A DNA stretch of 64,000 nucleotides from IMG/VR virus record IMGVR_UViG_3300005289_000003, positions 1 through 64,000 of that record; one strand, written 5' to 3'. A program made the translations under genes and the position numbers. The notes beneath the pieces were generated by a model. It did no database searches, was not told where the DNA came from, and saw only the letters and a program-made list of their open reading frames with translations. This stretch comes from a virus. This document shows positions 4,937 through 56,462 of the stretch, piece by piece. The stretch's first letter is position 1. Every line of letters starts with the position of its first letter.

Positions 4937-5210
4937 TTTTAAAGAATCATGTCTGAGAGGTTGACTCTAGGATGTGGAGGAGGGCAAGACCCCATTCTCA
5001 CCCCCCTCCACTATCATCCCCAATAACTTCCTACAACTTCTTGACTCAAACTTTGTAATTTTTTGGAATTCTTCTTTTCTGGGAGAACTTCTCACTCCCT
5101 CTCTGGCTCTCTCTAGGGAGTTGGGGAGTACGTTTTCCCCCCGTCATTCGCTTCGCTCATGACACCCCCCAGGGGTTAAAACCGTGCAAAGAGTCCCACA
5201 ACTTATCAGG

Positions 5211-5501
5211 CTAGAAACTTTCCACAAAAGTAATTATTCCTCCAATCTGACAGTAATCTTCCAGAGCCTGACTAAGTTCTATAAGTTGTCCATCAGAAAG
5301 TTCTACAGGAAGTTCAACGTTATATCCACCAGGACCACTAGAAATAGCTTTCATTCCCTTCATAATTACTTGTCCATCACCAACCCACTTCACTTCTGGC
5401 CTTGGAAAGAATCTTCCGAATATGTTCTCTAGATCCCTAGTTATTTCTGGTTCATCTTCTGGAGTCCTATTCCAATTCCATGTATTGAAAGTTAGCTCCA
5501 T
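5211..5501 (-). CDS. hypothetical protein
   Basis: AAGGAG SD before ATG 5501 (MELTFN...). Confidence 0.6.
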   Translation of the reverse strand: MELTFNTWNWNRTPEDEPEITRDLENIFGRFFPRPEVKWVGDGQVIMKGMKAISSGPGGYNVELPVELSDGQLIELSQALEDYCQIGGIITFVESF

Positions 5502-26525: not shown

Positions 26526-26610
26526 GCCATGGATGCACGCATGGGACGTGCGCCAGTCTGTAGAACTGGTGTCTAACAAGGCTAAGTAGGTTCGATTCCT
26601 ACCCGTGGCA
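26526..26610 (+). tRNA. atypical tRNA-Tyr(GTA)
   Basis: loop CTGTAGA; long variable arm; non-canonical D arm. Confidence 0.7.
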
Positions 26611-26612
26611 CT

Positions 26613-26719
26613 GGAGACAATGAGGATAGAGCAGAGTCCCTAACCCGTAAGGGTGGGACGGTTTCCATAGCTGGCCACCGGCGAAACTCTGCTTTCACGG
26701 TTCAATTCCGGAGTCTCCT
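26613..26719 (+). ncRNA. tRNA-like RNA, TLD-type (copy 1)
   Basis: acceptor GGAGAC/GTCTCC, T-loop TTCAATT, long helix replacing the anticodon arm. Confidence 0.6.
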
Positions 26720-26745
26720 CTATTCAAAAACTATAAGGAGTATTT

Positions 26746-26955
26746 GTGGGCAGAGCTACACACACGACAACCACGATTAGGCGAATCATTGTTGGTCAAG
26801 AGTTCTATCTCTCTATCGACGGAGTCACCGCTTACAAGCTCCTGACCAAGTCAGACATTGGTGGAGCAAGCTACAACGTCACCTTCAAGCGTGCAGACAA
26901 TGAAGGTGAAACCGAGCATGGAGACTGGCCGTACAACACCAAGGTCTACATCTGA
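26746..26955 (+). CDS. small hypothetical protein (family ending VYI)
   Basis: AAGGAG SD; IRRIIVGQEF...TKVYI. Confidence 0.75.
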   Translation: MGRATHTTTTIRRIIVGQEFYLSIDGVTAYKLLTKSDIGGASYNVTFKRADNEGETEHGDWPYNTKVYI

Positions 26956-27260
26956 CGGGGTCATGCCTGTTGGCCCGTTGCTGGTGAGCCTGTAGGCGAG
27001 CGGAGCACACCAGCCCAAAGAGGCTCACCTTTGCAGGGGTAGAGCCTCAATAGGTGGCCCCCGTGACGGTACCCAGAAGCCACGTGGTAGGGCTCTGGTG
27101 AGCTACCGGGGGCAGAGGCCCTAGGTTGTGTTCCAGCCCTTCCTAGGGCCTCTCAGACGTCTCTGTGGGAGCTTCCCTGTCCCCCCGTCAGGGCCACAGA
27201 GACAGGGGGAACCCTGGTGGGTTCCACTCCCCCCGGAATTCCTAGGGTTCCCCCGTTCAA

Positions 27261-27333
27261 GCGTCGTTAGCTTAATTGGTAGAGCTACGGTCTCCAAAAC
27301 CGTCAGGTGAGGGTTCGAATCCCTTGCGGCGTG
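27261..27333 (+). tRNA. tRNA-Trp(CCA)
   Basis: cloverleaf, loop CTCCAAA. Confidence 0.9.
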
Positions 27334-27479
27334 CTCCAAAGGAGGAAACTATATGAGCAAAAATATATCTGGTATGGAGTGTGGCTGCATGCTGGTTATT
27401 GAGTACGGTAAAGCGCCGTACATCATCAGGCACGCTAATTGCAAGAAGGCCCACGGCACACCAGAGAAGAAGAATTGAC

Positions 27480-27983
27480 ATGACCATGTCAGATGCCGAT
27501 CACATGCACCCGCATGTGGCTAGGGCTCTTCACGATGCTTTGAAGAGTGGGGACTACAAGCAAGGTCACAACTTCCTTCACAAGGTAATGAAGGACATAG
27601 GTGATCTTTACTGCTGCTTGGGTGTCCTTTGCCGGCTAGCCATTAACGCTGGCGTAGTGGTTCCTCAGGAAGAGTTCAATCTAGGGAACGGCAATCAGGT
27701 AGTCATCAAGTATGAAGGTGATGACGGGTGGCTTGGCCTGATAGTCAGTGAGTGGGCCGGAAAGCACGCTACTCCTTCTTATAGGCTTCCTCTCTGGTAC
27801 GACGAAGAGAAGAAGATTCCTTTTGCTGGGGACCTTGACGAAGAAATGGACCGTATTACTCTGGCCATCTTGAATGATGGAGATAGCAATAGGTTCCATG
27901 GTCTGACATTCTCTCAAATAGCCGACATCGTTTTGTTCATGTGGGGATACGGCGATGAAGACGAAGTATCGGCTAACGATTAG
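27480..27983 (+). CDS. hypothetical protein (CCLGV motif)
   Basis: ALKSGDYKQG...YCCLGVLC...LND...TFSQIAD. Confidence 0.75.
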   Translation: MTMSDADHMHPHVARALHDALKSGDYKQGHNFLHKVMKDIGDLYCCLGVLCRLAINAGVVVPQEEFNLGNGNQVVIKYEGDDGWLGLIVSEWAGKHATPSYRLPLWYDEEKKIPFAGDLDEEMDRITLAILNDGDSNRFHGLTFSQIADIVLFMWGYGDEDEVSAND

Positions 27984-28125
27984 ACGGAGTAACGGAAGAC
28001 TCGTTCGCGAATACGGCAACCTGAGCAAGTACGCGGCTAAAGTCCGTAGAGATGAACTAGAAGACAAATACGATTCCGGCTATTACGTCGAATTGACACC
28101 CGATAGGAAACCCAATGCTGAATAA
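27955..28125 (+). CDS. 56-aa hypothetical protein (not in ORF track)
   Basis: MKTKYRLTIRRSNGRLVREYGNLSKY...; overlaps both neighbours. Confidence 0.55.
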   Translation: MKTKYRLTIRRSNGRLVREYGNLSKYAAKVRRDELEDKYDSGYYVELTPDRKPNAE

Positions 28126-28402
28126 TCCAGGTCTCGTCTACGTCTGCTACATGGTCAGTGGGGACCAGGAGCCACGGCCCATCAAGGTGGGTCTGACGTA
28201 TGACGAAGCCTTGAAGGAAGTCAACGCGAATAAGAGGGCTGTCAAAACCGTACTCAGGTTCGCGTGGATCGCTGGCCTGTTCAGTAAGGAAGCGCGCAAG
28301 AACATGCAAACCCTGAAGGGTGTGAAGTACTACATCACGGGGTACCGGCCCACGGCGGTCAACAACCTTGCCACGGTGGATGAGGAGTGGGCAGAACAAT
28401 AA
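28115..28402 (+). CDS. hypothetical protein
   Basis: ORF in operon. Confidence 0.65.
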   Translation: MLNNPGLVYVCYMVSGDQEPRPIKVGLTYDEALKEVNANKRAVKTVLRFAWIAGLFSKEARKNMQTLKGVKYYITGYRPTAVNNLATVDEEWAEQ

Positions 28403-28410
28403 GGAAATAA

Positions 28411-28483
28411 GCCCCATTAGCTCAGTGGACAGAGCGACACCCTTCTAAGGTGAAGGCCGTAGGTTCGACTCCTACATGGGGTA
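28411..28483 (+). tRNA. tRNA-Arg(TCT)
   Basis: cloverleaf, loop CTTCTAA. Confidence 0.92.
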
Positions 28484-28485
28484 CG

Positions 28486-28584
28486 GGGGCACGATGTGGA
28501 AACGCGGGGAAGTAGGAAACAGTTTCTTCCTCCTTTATGTTTCCTATGATGACCGTTGTCACGGTTCGATTCCGGGGTGCCCCT
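28486..28584 (+). ncRNA. tRNA-like RNA, TLD-type (copy 2) with anti-SD loop
   Basis: GGGGCAC/GTGCCCC acceptor, TTCGATT T-loop, hairpin loop containing TTCCTCCTTT. Confidence 0.65.
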
Positions 28585-28960
28585 CTATTCACTCTGAAGA
28601 GTGACCTGTAAGCACACCTATAAGTAGACTCTCCCTTCTGTCTGGCAGGATAAGAGCCACGGCTAGCATGCTGTCTGTGGTGACTGAAACTGCCCCGTAC
28701 GCGGAGAATGGCAAAGGGAGCGCATGTCACGCCACTGTGGATGAGTCATAGCCCTACCGAGTGCGCCGGTTCTAAGGGGTTAGGCGTTCGTCCGGAAGAG
28801 CGCTGGAACGAATGAGGGCCTACTAGGTGGAGTCGATTGGACTACTCGGGTCAGGTTGTCTAGGGTCTTAGAGCTGACGCAACCTGATGCAAAAGGGACG
28901 GGTAGGAGACTGAGAAGCCGATAATGTAGGCCCTCATTTGTTTTGTCCAAAGGAGGAAAA

Positions 28961-33163: not shown

Positions 33164-33307
33164 GAGGTACCGAAGCGAAGAAGACGGATACTTCAATGGA
33201 TAAACCGTAGGTCGTTGGTTCAAATCCAACCCTCCCAACCATTGGGAGGTAGCTCAGTGGTTAGAGCAACGGTGAAAAGACTGTCTTCGATTATTTCTCG
33301 GTACCTC
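33164..33307 (+). ncRNA. Y RNA 1, YrlA-like (circularly permuted tRNA domain)
   Basis: terminal stem + GAAGCG-N8-GGATACTTC...TATTTCTC; T arm, acceptor, D arm order. Confidence 0.85.
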
Positions 33308-33313
33308 CCAGTT

Positions 33314-33453
33314 TGGCACTGAAGCGGAAGGTAAGGGTTACTCCTAATATGAATAGGGTAGACCAGGTTCGAATCCTGGCCGCTCCACAATAAGGGGCGG
33401 TAGTGTAATGGCAGCACACTAAAAATACCCAAACCTAATATTTCTCAGTGCCA
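33314..33453 (+). ncRNA. Y RNA 2, YrlA-like (circularly permuted tRNA domain)
   Basis: same conserved helix; CCAGG-TTCGAAT-CCTGG, then acceptor, then D arm. Confidence 0.85.
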
Positions 33454-33460
33454 CCCAGTT

Positions 33461-33585
33461 TGACCCGAAGCGTAGTAACTGGTTACTTCTCTCCGCCAGG
33501 GCCTAGCCCGGAGGGCACCTACTTCCAAGCTTTTAAACTTGGTTTCGTAGGAACCTGTGTGCCAATTACGATATTTCTCGGGTCG
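33461..33585 (+). ncRNA. Y RNA-like 3 (non-tRNA insert)
   Basis: GACCCGAAGCG-N8-GGTTACTTC...TATTTCTCGGGTC. Confidence 0.78.
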
Positions 33586-33592
33586 CCTAGAC

Positions 33593-33758
33593 GGCTTCAG
33601 AAGCGAAGAGAGAAGATACTTCTACAGAGAAAGAAAGTCCGTCCGACCAACGGCGCGCTACCTACTCCACACGTCATTGAGTAGGAGCAAGGGTGTAATT
33701 ACCAGATGTTGTGATTTGTTAATACCACCCGTCTTTTCTCAAGTATTACTCTGAAGTC
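33593..33758 (+). ncRNA. Y RNA-like 4 (non-tRNA insert)
   Basis: GGCTTCAGAAGCG-N8-AGATACTTC...TATTACTCTGAAGTC. Confidence 0.75.
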
Positions 33759-33765
33759 TCCTTGT

Positions 33766-33858
33766 TGGGTCAGAAGCGGACGGATAGGTTACTTCACAAA
33801 CACCACTATTAATGGTGTCTCTAAGAGACAAACTTATTCGAATTATTTCTCTGACCCA
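33766..33858 (+). ncRNA. Y RNA-like 5 (short insert)
   Basis: TGGGTCAGAAGCG-N8-GGTTACTTC...TATTTCTCTGACCCA. Confidence 0.78.
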
Positions 33859-33862
33859 CCCT

Positions 33863-33949
33863 AAAGCAAGAGGCACCGAAGCGGAGAATACGGTTACTTC
33901 TTTCGGCTGATAGATCCGTATTCGTTTATTACTCGGTGCTCCTTGCTTT
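33863..33949 (+). ncRNA. Y RNA-like 6 (minimal; just upstream of the Ro60 RBS)
   Basis: GGCACCGAAGCG-N8-GGTTACTTC...TATTACTCGGTGCT; extended stem ending in T run. Confidence 0.75.
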
Positions 33950-33976
33950 TATTACTCTCCCGAAAGGAGAAGCGGC

Positions 33977-35584
33977 ATGGGAAAGCTAGGTAAGCAAAGC
34001 GCAAAGCTTCAGGTGGAAAGTGCGAACAAGAAGGCTGGACTGATTCGCACCAGCGGGGGAAAGACCACCACTCATGAAGGTGGAACCGGGCACCTACGCG
34101 ATACCAAGTCGGAACTATTCCTTCTTGGTGTTACCAACATGGTGTCTGAGCAAACCTTCTATGAGCGCGGTTCGGATCGTGACAAGCGCTTTATGGGTCT
34201 GCTCATCACGGTGACCCATCAGGATGCCGATTGGGTATCTCGGTTCCTACCGTGGCTACGCGGACCAGGCAACATGAGAACCGCTTCTATCGTCGGTGCG
34301 GCTGTCTATGCCCGCACCGTCCTGTCCATGGCTCCTGAGGCACGTGAGGCTCTTTACAGGGCTTTCCCTGGGGCCACGGTCCGGAAGGTTGTGGCGTCCG
34401 TCCTACAGCGTCCCGACGAACCAGCAGAGTTCATCTCCTACTGGCTTCAGGGAAGTGACACCAAGACGCTTCCTGGTGGCGTGCAGCGTGGTCTAGCCGA
34501 CGCGGTAAAGCGTCTGTACACGGAACGGAACTCCCTGAAGTACGACGGACAGAACCAGCCATGGCGTATGTCTGACGTGATTCAGTTGGTTCACCCGGAC
34601 CCTGATACTGAGGTTCAGTCTCTTCTTTTCGATTACCTTGCCAAGAAGCGCTTCAGCGGAAGCGAAGCGGTAATCCCAGACGAACTCTTGATGCTTCAGG
34701 CAAACAGGAAGCTCTACGAAATCCCTCAGGAGCTACGTCGGGAGCGTCTGGCAGCAGACCCGAAGTCAATGGCTACCATTCTCCGGAGTGGTGGCATGAC
34801 CTGGGAATCACTAGCAACGTGGCTAGGTGGTCCTCTGGGTAAGGAAGGTTGGGAGGCAATTGCTCCTAGCCTGGGAATCTTCGCTCTGGTCCGGAACCTT
34901 CGGAACATCAGTGAAGCTGGAGTGAGCAACGAGGTTCAGGAAGCCCTAGCGGCAAAGATTTCTGACCCTCAGGTAATTGCCAACTCTCGTATGTTCCCTC
35001 TTCGCTTCTACACGGCGTATCGGGAAGCCACGAACGTCATATGGAGCTACCCCCTTGAGAAGGCCCTGATGGCTTCTCTGGGGAACATTCCGAAGTTGGA
35101 CGGCCGAACGCTGGTACTGATCGACCAATCAGGTTCGATGAATTTTTCTATGTCGAACAAGTCCACCGTGCGACTCTCGGAACAGGCTGCCTTGTTCGGT
35201 ATCGCTCTGGGCATGGCTGCCGACAATGCGGATGTCTACGTCTACGGGAATTCTCACAAGGAAATCCCGCTACCCAAGGGTGGTTCAATCCTGCCGCTTG
35301 TCGCTAAGTACGGTCAGGCTGATATGGGTGGAACCCAGACATGGACCACTGCCAGATCCCTTTACCGGGGTCATGACAGAATCGTTATCGTGACGGATGA
35401 GCAGAGCCACGATAGCGCGTACGGAATTCCGGATATCCCCATCGTGACCTTCAACGTTGAGGGCTACAAGGCTGCCCACACGGAATCCTCAAAGAAGAGA
35501 ATCACCGTGGGTGGTCTGTCGGATGGTGGGTTCAGCCTGATTCAGGCCATGGACTCCGCCGGTAAGGGTGAGTGGCCTTTCTGA
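33977..35584 (+). CDS. rsr: Ro60/Rsr TROVE-domain RNA-binding protein with vWA domain
   Basis: TTTHEGG.G, FYE, R.D, KY, H P, TWE, ALVRNLRN, SRMFP.RFY; vWA MIDAS DQSGSM, GGT, TDEQ. Confidence 0.93.
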   Translation: MGKLGKQSAKLQVESANKKAGLIRTSGGKTTTHEGGTGHLRDTKSELFLLGVTNMVSEQTFYERGSDRDKRFMGLLITVTHQDADWVSRFLPWLRGPGNMRTASIVGAAVYARTVLSMAPEAREALYRAFPGATVRKVVASVLQRPDEPAEFISYWLQGSDTKTLPGGVQRGLADAVKRLYTERNSLKYDGQNQPWRMSDVIQLVHPDPDTEVQSLLFDYLAKKRFSGSEAVIPDELLMLQANRKLYEIPQELRRERLAADPKSMATILRSGGMTWESLATWLGGPLGKEGWEAIAPSLGIFALVRNLRNISEAGVSNEVQEALAAKISDPQVIANSRMFPLRFYTAYREATNVIWSYPLEKALMASLGNIPKLDGRTLVLIDQSGSMNFSMSNKSTVRLSEQAALFGIALGMAADNADVYVYGNSHKEIPLPKGGSILPLVAKYGQADMGGTQTWTTARSLYRGHDRIVIVTDEQSHDSAYGIPDIPIVTFNVEGYKAAHTESSKKRITVGGLSDGGFSLIQAMDSAGKGEWPF

Positions 35585-55976: not shown

Positions 55977-56007
55977 TTCCTTCCCTCCTTTGTTTTGCCT
56001 TGTTACG

Positions 56008-56057
56008 TGGGTTTGCTGGATTCGAACCAGGCCATCCGCTCCATCTAGCGCTAACCC
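56008..56057 (-). ncRNA. anticodon-less mini-tRNA-like element B
   Basis: GGGTTAG-CGCTAGATGGAGCG-..-CTGGTTCGAATCCAG-CAAACCC-A. Confidence 0.7.
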
Positions 56058-56403
56058 TGGGGCTTACCAGCCCCTTGCCTTCTTGTACTCTCGTTGACTC
56101 TTGCGGCTACTGAAGTAACGCCCGACCTTTTCGAACTGGTTACCGACCATGATGATCAGAATATGCAGCCAAAAAACAATGGCAATCAATGCCAAGACTG
56201 CAAGGACTGCACAAATTGGCGCAAAGAAACCGATTAGGAAAGCGTTCGCTGATTGGTCCATGGTCAGTCCATTTCCGCAAGCTTGCCGATCAGGCTAAAG
56301 ATGAAGTAGAACAAAGCGAAAGCGCCTAGTCCCCCGAAGATTCCAAGGATTGGCGCCAGGATCTCCATCATTTGACTTCCTCCTTTTAGTTGATTTCCTT
56401 ACG

Positions 56404-56452
56404 TGGGTGCCGCCGGATTTGAACCGGTTAACGCTCCATCTAGCGCGGTCCC
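56404..56452 (-). ncRNA. anticodon-less mini-tRNA-like element A
   Basis: GGGACCG-CGCTAGATGGAGCG-TTAA-CCGGTTCAAATCCGG-CGGCACCC-A. Confidence 0.7.
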
Positions 56453-56462
56453 TGCCTGTTAC

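Follow-up and report, generated by a model that had tools for sequence, protein, structure and literature searches.

Two tRNA-shaped RNAs in a phage tRNA operon: putative tRNA mimics with a common scaffold, one of which displays an anti-Shine-Dalgarno loop

Small RNAs that originate from tRNA transcription units or imitate tRNA have been described in several systems. E. coli 3'ETS-leuZ is a base-pairing sponge derived from a tRNA spacer; the spacer is unstructured and not tRNA-shaped. RNA C and RNA D, both small and stable and with no role assigned to them, come from the tRNA region of phage T4 (PMC3014915; PMC9697503). Bacterial Y RNAs mimic tRNA, some of them with pyrimidine-rich loops (PMC4201824), and in M. 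smegmatis RNase P cleaves YrlA, to which CCA is also added (Chen et al. 2014, PMC4201824). The actinobacterial 6C small RNA (sRNA) pairs through its C-rich loops with G-rich ribosome-binding sites (RBSs) and represses translation in mycobacteria without a chaperone (Mai et al. 2019, PMC6486639), and the t-elements of plant mitochondria are documented cis processing signals (PMC1920247). Here we analyse two tRNA-shaped RNAs, X1 and X2, encoded among the tRNA genes of an uncultured phage (IMG/VR record IMGVR_UViG_3300005289_000003; 86,444 bp with direct terminal repeats), the first 64 kb of which constitute the stretch under study, hereafter the window. We tentatively interpret X1 and X2 as stable tRNA-mimic sRNAs that would be cut from the tRNA operon by the tRNA-maturation enzymes of the host and that combine a conserved scaffold with variable cargo, X2 being an anti-RBS RNA; taken as a whole, this reading is given somewhat less than an even chance.

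X1 and X2 each follow a tRNA gene, with a single base between the encoded C74 of the tRNA and the first base of the element (Table 1). An earlier note, made from the letters of this DNA, had placed both RNAs directly 3' of a tRNA and had assigned to them a common acceptor stem, a stemless D-like segment, a T arm and a trailer, all of which were found in both copies. The acceptor helix is GGAGAC/GTCTCC in X1 (6 bp) and GGGGCAC/GTGCCCC in X2 (7 bp), and every difference between the two preserves pairing; that strands which differ at several positions nevertheless pair perfectly argues for selection on the helix. The stemless, GG-containing segment reads ATGAGGA in X1 and ATGTGGA in X2 (in full AAUGAGGAUA and GAUGUGGAAAC, respectively), after which each RNA enters a helix. 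The T arm, TCACGG-TTC(A/G)ATT-CCGG, has the same A·G mismatch in both, and in both copies the acceptor 3' strand is followed by T, C and the trailer TATTCA. Two of the five occurrences of TCTATTCA in the 64 kb are at X1 and X2. The central arms, of 65–70 nt, could not be aligned. Near-identical T arms, D-like segments and trailers around central arms that cannot be aligned point to a conserved scaffold with variable cargo. A covariance model built on the two RNAs (R1) scored them at 135 and 132 bits, and the next match in the window at 12.6 bits.

The ends of X1 and X2 conform to those of the tRNAs around them. All 25 tRNA genes of the phage encode N73 and a single C, the next bases not being CA, and the same rule holds for X1 and X2, which end in U73-C74. 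As in tRNA, a TTCRANY T loop is carried on a stacked acceptor/T arm. Between the X genes and the upstream tRNAs no promoter-like or terminator-like site was found, and nothing supported the trailer as a promoter or terminator.

The tRNA-like fold of X1 was its minimum-free-energy structure (−43.1 kcal/mol, z −3.3), and that of X2 lay 2.6 kcal/mol above the minimum; the X2 hairpin TAGGAAACA/TGTTTCCTA with its 16-nt loop GTTTCTTCCTCCTTTA was present in the minimum as well as in the tRNA-like fold. In X1 the arm in the position of the anticodon arm is not the simple long helix that had been proposed; a three-way junction occupies this position. The X1 segment GG-AT-AGAGC-A-GAG resembles the 3' half of a tRNA D arm without its 5' partner, which suggests that X1 may have descended from a tRNA gene. 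Two structural motifs were tried and rejected. A K-turn in the internal loop of X2 (UGAUGA opposite GGAA) was dropped on account of an unsuitable tandem G·A geometry. The X1 junction does have GUC, three helices and CGAAAC, as in a hammerhead, but the type III hammerhead scored 14.4 bits (gathering threshold 48.5; E 1.1) and the CUGAUGA box is replaced by ACGGUUUCCAUA.

The plan of the two RNAs was compared with known families. The consensus of transfer-messenger RNA (tmRNA, RF00023; shown for the phage tmRNA in L189) starts with a 7-bp acceptor and 10 unpaired bases (AucuGGaUUC) and then leads through a long helix and a single base to the T arm and back to the acceptor. X1 and X2 follow this plan of the tRNA-like domain (TLD) of tmRNA, with about 10 unpaired bases around a central GGA between the acceptor and the long helix, and the T arm thereafter; the two plans being equal, the description of X1 and X2 as tmRNA-TLD-like, and yet not tmRNA, is apt in both its parts. 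X1 has A3-U70 and X2 has G3-C70 where tmRNA has the alanine identity pair G3·U70; both have U73 instead of A73; and they measure about 100 nt as opposed to about 350 nt, the mRNA-like domain, the tag frame and the pseudoknots all being absent. The models of the tmRNA clan (including permuted and mitochondrial forms) gave no match to X1 or X2 alone at E ≤ 10. Neither RNA has the D stem and the 7-nt anticodon loop on a 5-bp stem that mark a tRNA, and neither was called by ARAGORN; the best tRNA-clan scores were 13.5 and 15.7 bits (tRNA-Sec model), compared with gathering thresholds of 47 and 29. Overall, the tmRNA, tRNA, YrlA and leuA-Halobacteria families were either absent or far below threshold. 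With RNA C and RNA D of T4, X1 and X2 have in common the genomic setting, the only aspect compared: small RNAs from a phage tRNA region.

YrlA and other Y RNAs resemble X1 and X2 in being tRNA mimics in phages with many tRNAs and a Ro60 gene. The architecture is different: the ends of YrlA form the Ro-binding stem and its acceptor-like stem is closed by a loop, whereas the ends of X1 and X2 form the acceptor stem. The Y RNA handle (GNCGAA-type; in this phage stem-GAAGCGNA ... ATTTCTC-stem) is absent from X1 and X2, a lone GGCGAA in X1 having a chance of about one in ten, and the YrlA model (RF02553) did not match X1 or X2, even with the elements searched alone at E ≤ 10. The window does contain Y-RNA-like units, six in tandem, directly upstream of a Ro60 gene (Table 1). 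The first two of these carry permuted tRNA-like modules and yielded the only YrlA matches (33181-33290, 38 bits; 33346-33445, 22 bits).

The central arm of X2 presents a loop with the core CTTCCTCCTTT, which is the exact 11-nt complement of AAAGGAGGAAG; the complementarity to the Shine-Dalgarno sequences (SDs) of the phage that the earlier note had reported is thus confirmed. Of the 13 copies of AAAGGAGG in the window, all 12 outside X2 are on the same strand as the surrounding genes, and nine of these were seen immediately 5' of start codons; the X2 copy is the only antisense one inside the plus-strand block. The X2 loop is also the only unpaired CCUCC-containing loop in the non-coding part of the tRNA block, and 17 SDs match it perfectly over 9–11 nt. 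The same note had named a refuting possibility, that the loop serves as the SD of a real minus-strand gene. This was checked and is not so: the first ATG, GTG or TTG lies about 35 nt past GGAGG, which leaves no start codon at a usable distance, and the minus-strand stretch past GGAGG is antisense to X2 itself and then to tRNA-Arg. Both UUCCU and UCCUU are present in the loop, which reproduces the anti-SD core CCUCCUUU of 16S rRNA.

Like 6C, X2 has an unpaired, pyrimidine-rich hairpin loop with complementarity to RBSs; X1 has none. X2 and the 6C sRNA (RF01066) both have a C-rich hairpin loop (C and U in X2) that should be able to pair with a purine-rich RBS without a chaperone. The 6C sRNA, however, is free-standing and has at least two hairpins with CCCCCC loops, while X2 is tRNA-shaped and its loop is the copy of the 16S anti-SD; the 6C model did not match X2. 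A second element of possible 6C type was noted between X1 and X2 (27159-27254, plus strand). It is a very stable double hairpin (−61.3 kcal/mol, z −5.0) with CCCCCC in both loops, ends a few bases 5' of tRNA-Trp, and scored below threshold with the Rfam 6C model (21.4 bits against a gathering threshold of 47); we consider it a candidate phage 6C-like anti-RBS sRNA. Given the precedent of 6C, this double hairpin makes it plausible that the tRNA operon carries more than one RNA with an anti-RBS loop.

What the sequence shows (its features, folds and compensatory changes, the rule at the ends, and the complementarity) leads us to infer the following course of expression, processing, CCA addition and pairing. 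X1 and X2 would be paralogous, tRNA-derived RNAs built on the top half of tRNA (acceptor, T arm and stemless D-loop analogue), a statement that shares the tentative standing of the interpretation as a whole. They would be transcribed within the long phage tRNA operon, and cleavage by host RNase P at G1 of X1 and X2 would leave the tRNA before each of them a single base too long. Trimming would take the 3' end back to U73-C74, from which CCA would be completed in the same way as in the 25 tRNAs. Genes for SmpB and for a CCA-adding enzyme were not found in the phage genome; with no CCA-adding enzyme of the phage, and with the N73-C74 rule, the tRNAs and the X RNAs would both use 3' trimming and CCA completion by the host. 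In such a design, the scaffold would supply processing, stability and a tRNA-like elbow, and the arm in the position of the anticodon arm would be the variable functional cargo. The 16-nt loop of X2 would pair with 9–11 nt of AAAGGAGGAA-type RBSs, and X2 would most likely be a chaperone-independent, 6C-like anti-RBS sRNA, acting either in trans or on its own precursor in cis. The cargo of X1 would be a different fold, the three-way junction.

Look-alikes of X1 and X2 were found in other viral contigs. A descriptor scan of 1.48 Mb of phage DNA returned one element with the X1/X2 layout, L205:14143-14242, which consists of GGGGATG, the stemless ACAGGGTAAG, a long helix replacing the anticodon arm, a T arm and an A-C end, and which sits in the tRNA cluster of a 110-kb viral contig. 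R1 showed no link between this element and X1 or X2, and an IMG/VR scan with a motif common to X1 and the L205 element recovered the L205 element only. YrlA-like permuted tRNA units with a GGGTCGA(A/C) handle were seen on the same contig (L205:18800-20100). Several further tRNA-shaped RNAs from the descriptor scan combine a normal D arm with an anticodon arm of increased size. Those at L157:7835-7946, L212:12618-12729, L215:13583-13688 and L216 (14389-14504 and 14821-14934) have canonical D and T arms and a 45–60-nt replacement of the anticodon arm; several have ATCTTGT..AAGAT..CAGCAATT in common, and they are probably Ro60-linked RNAs.

A further scan, for TTCCTCCTTT at 15–45 nt upstream of a T loop, yielded 105 IMG/VR loci, 86 of which fall into two trivial families (the anticodon stem of tRNA-Val, and an SD adjoining a mini-tRNA). 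Three singletons, on L366, L384 and L344 (Table 1), have UUCCUCCUUU in the apical pyrimidine-rich hairpin loop of a well-formed tRNA-like element, and no usable minus-strand start codon was found near any of them. The L384 element, which has a normal D arm, stops 3 nt 5' of an ATG without an SD of its own; a terminator hairpin comes after the L344 element. With a composition-matched control motif, 10 loci were obtained compared with 105, none clearly tRNA-like with the motif in a loop; these numbers are too small, and too much dominated by the two families, for a statistical claim. The three elements are best seen as design analogues of X2, not as proven relatives, and hint that the design may recur. 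The wider proposition, that phages repeatedly build tRNA-shaped RNAs displaying a copy of the 16S anti-SD on a hairpin that takes the place of the anticodon arm (X2 and the elements of L366, L384 and L344), which would be matured like tRNAs and would bind SDs or act as decoys of the 16S 3' end, appears quite unlikely.

Homologues of the RNAs themselves were not recovered. Among 50,697 GenBank phages (megablast and blastn), X1 and X2 gave only 20–26-nt T-arm matches to ordinary tRNAs; IMG/VR scans with the T-arm 17-mer and with the T arm plus trailer gave unrelated matches only; and a metagenome scan with the T-arm 17-mer gave 119 loci, mostly coding, none of which matches R1 beyond the seed. 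The IMG/VR loci reached via a neighbouring protein or Ro60 (1.35 Mb) contained no R1 match, and the R1 covariance searches, which covered about 1.9 Mb of loci in all, found no homologue of X1 or X2. One relative of the phage is evident, an 84-kb Logan contig encoding P0002, which is 43% identical to the ORF (open reading frame) at 27480-27983, located between X1 and X2. A side observation concerns tRNA-like genes in unrelated contigs that have a T-arm-like second arm in the position of the variable arm: in L003:7301-7317 and L004:4126-4142 (both minus strand) this second arm is the exact X2 17-mer TCACGGTTCGATTCCGG, A·G mismatch included, and similar 'two-T-arm' tRNA-like genes occur in L009, L010, L013 and L015.

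Several results weigh against X1 and X2 as tRNA mimics of which one is an anti-RBS RNA. Conservation of the loop or of the RNAs is without support, no homologue having been found. The X2 loop has no single extended target, no match going beyond 11 nt, and its best targets are the strongest SDs of the phage itself, which makes a simple role as a trans-repressor awkward. CCTCC is not enriched on the plus strand of the tRNA block (11 observed, 13 expected), no general enrichment of CCUCC loops was found there, and over 64 kb roughly one such 8-mer match per strand would be expected by chance; the anti-SD case is one of motif location, not of counts. The loop is present in X2 only, and, X1 being without it, the anti-SD display has to be taken as the cargo of one copy and not as a family trait; pairing with SDs or sequestering them, which the earlier note inferred for the two RNAs, cannot be their shared function. 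The search that yielded the three analogues was conditioned on the motif, and R1 provides no link between them and X2. X1, moreover, has a 6-bp acceptor and only three Watson-Crick pairs in its T stem, so that efficient recognition by RNase P and the CCA enzyme is an assumption.

Four other explanations were weighed, of which the marking of cleavage sites in cis is given the best chance. X1 and X2 would then be tRNA-like signals that recruit RNase P and the 3' enzymes; their cleavage would define where the preceding tRNA stops and where the RNA that follows begins, and the excised piece would have no function. The t-elements (PMC1920247) are likewise tRNA-like precursor pieces released by tRNA-processing enzymes, and differ in that no trans function is known for them. 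In its favour, only one base separates X1 and X2 from their tRNAs, X1 is followed after 26 nt by an ORF that has its own SD, and short tRNA-like folds lie between minus-strand genes of the same phage at about 55.9–56.5 kb. These minus-strand elements are, however, much smaller than X1 and X2, and an acceptor/T-arm minihelix suffices for RNase P, which would make arms of 65–70 nt, a D-loop analogue and a trailer superfluous; in addition, 23 other tRNAs manage without such a neighbour. We therefore regard this account as unlikely. It is highly improbable that the two are decaying tRNA genes without function. Such pseudogenes could explain the D-arm 3' half of X1 that has no 5' partner, the T-stem mismatches and the missing anticodon loop, but not that both diverged copies have kept a perfect acceptor helix through compensatory changes, along with the D-like segment and the U73-C74 rule, and that their mismatched T arms and their trailers are identical; the replacement arm of X1 is also highly structured, and phage genomes are compact.

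The remaining two explanations grant the RNAs a partner in trans. As decoys, X1 and X2 would use the top half of tmRNA/tRNA to titrate a host factor that reads the elbow or the 3' end of 16S rRNA, such as SmpB (trans-translation would then be blocked), toxins that modify or cleave tRNA 3' ends, or MazF-type nucleases. MazF-type cleavage takes place at UUCCU or UCCUU, the anti-SD of 16S rRNA among its sites, and the X2 loop has both motifs as well as the 16S anti-SD core. A decoy role also agrees with the layout of a tmRNA tRNA-like domain and with ends suited to CCA addition; the phage having neither SmpB nor a CCA-adding enzyme, any such partner would be the host's. We nevertheless judge it improbable, as no tmRNA model matches, G3·U70 is missing, X1 is without such a loop, and neither the phage nor the host could be linked to a specific toxin. 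That X1 and X2 are further Y-RNA-like substrates of Ro60 (Rsr), beside the array of six units, is quite improbable too. The TROVE-domain Ro60 gene and the YrlA-like tRNA-mimic units of the window speak for it, as does the knowledge that bacterial Y RNAs mimic tRNA and that one is cut by RNase P and tailed with CCA (PMC4201824). The handle of the six units is missing from X1 and X2, though, and their ends form an acceptor stem, not a Ro-binding stem; there is no match to the YrlA model; and the Ro60 gene is 5.4–7.3 kb downstream of the two, farther away than from known Y RNAs, which are mostly adjacent to it and at most about 4 kb distant (PMC4201824). On balance, tRNA-mimic sRNAs with a conserved scaffold and variable cargo remain our preferred, if tentative, reading of X1 and X2.

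The positions of the RNAs, their parts and the related features are given in Table 1.

Table 1. Coordinates of X1, X2, their parts and related features; positions refer to the window unless a contig is named.
Feature	Position	Strand	Basis or remark
tRNA-Tyr(GUA) gene	26526..26611	+	ARAGORN; encoded A73-C74 stops one base short of X1
X1, first tRNA-shaped RNA, 108 nt	26613..26720	+	sequence, fold, covariance model R1
X1 acceptor, 5' strand	26613-26618	+	
X1 stemless D-like segment	26619-26628	+	
X1 three-way-junction cargo arm	26629-26694	+	
X1 T arm	26696-26712	+	
X1 acceptor, 3' strand	26713-26718	+	
X1 U73-C74	26719-26720	+	
Trailer TATTCA 3' of X1	26721..26726	+	conserved
tRNA-Arg(UCU) gene	28411..28484	+	ARAGORN; encoded A73-C74 stops one base short of X2
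X2, second tRNA-shaped RNA, 100 nt	28486..28585	+	sequence, fold, covariance model R1
X2 acceptor, 5' strand	28486-28492	+	
X2 stemless D-like segment	28493-28503	+	
X2 short helix GCGG/CCGT	28504-28507 with 28553-28556	+	
X2 hairpin	28512-28547	+	
X2 hairpin apical loop, 16 nt	28522..28537	+	
X2 loop core CTTCCTCCTTT	28526-28536	+	
X2 T arm	28560-28576	+	
X2 acceptor, 3' strand	28577-28583	+	
X2 U73-C74	28584-28585	+	
Trailer TATTCA 3' of X2	28586..28591	+	conserved
Six tandem Y-RNA-like units	33164-33960	+	common terminal stem and GAAGCGNA ... ATTTCTC; directly upstream of Ro60 gene
TROVE-domain Ro60 gene	33977-35584	+	Pfam
UUCCUCCUUU-loop element	L366:4356-4471	+	
UUCCUCCUUU-loop element	L384:9640-9727	+	
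UUCCUCCUUU-loop element	L344, oriented 5157-5296	−	

The trailer of X1 is followed by an SD (AAGGAG) and the GTG start of a 69-aa ORF (26746-26955). On the 3' side of X2, some 350 nt of the plus strand (28592-28940) contain no convincing ORF and no Rfam match until an SD at 28949; this stretch may be another structured RNA or a long leader.

ARAGORN found 25 tRNA genes (21837-59965), covering all amino acids except Met; most of them are on the plus strand between 21.8 and 38 kb, with small ORFs in between. At the default threshold the program found no tmRNA in the genome. Its low-threshold tmRNA calls span coding genes, with no tag identified, and were judged not credible, as were the calls allowing introns. 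A Pfam search of 20 ORFs gave no match of relevance to tRNA-related enzymes. The DnaE-type polymerase is 42–44% identical to counterparts of Gordonia phages, e.g. GMA6, and the Ro60-like protein is 37–40% identical to proteins of Streptomyces and Gordonia phages; these identities to actinobacterial phages make an actinobacterial host likely, though unproven. The short tRNA-like folds of the minus strand, at about 55990-56090 and 56390-56460, consist of a D arm (GCGCTAGATGGAGCG) that passes straight into a T arm, the anticodon arm being absent; after each of them come CCCACGTAA, a strong SD and a small ORF. The window matches, or derives from, a 2012 soil metagenome, and pieces 98–99% identical to 26669-26838 and 27565-27752 occur as short contigs in two wastewater runs of 2025, so this phage, or one very closely related to it, may occur in more than a single sample. 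Both runs are labelled RNA-Seq and are probably DNA; the matches, being contigs, are uninformative on expression or RNA ends.

If X1 and X2 were cleavage marks only, they would be a modest addition to what is known of phage tRNA processing. As tRNA mimics they would follow a design rule in which the part of tRNA that is read by enzymes is kept and the decoding arm is exchanged, and they would bear on the sRNAs from the tRNA operons of large phages, in which tRNA genes are numerous; the roles of these sRNAs have been unknown since RNA C and RNA D of T4. With Ro60, six Y RNAs, mini-tRNA elements and a 6C-like RNA in one phage, the genome offers a compact test bed for tRNA mimicry. Should tRNA-shaped RNAs with a 16S anti-SD copy indeed be built repeatedly by phages, they would form an undescribed class of translation-directed tRNA mimics, which reprogramme the choice of messages that are translated or act as decoys for factors or toxins of the 16S 3' end. 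And if the arm of X2 pairs with RBSs, host tRNA maturation would provide the phage with a cheap route to abundant, stable regulators of translation or decoys.

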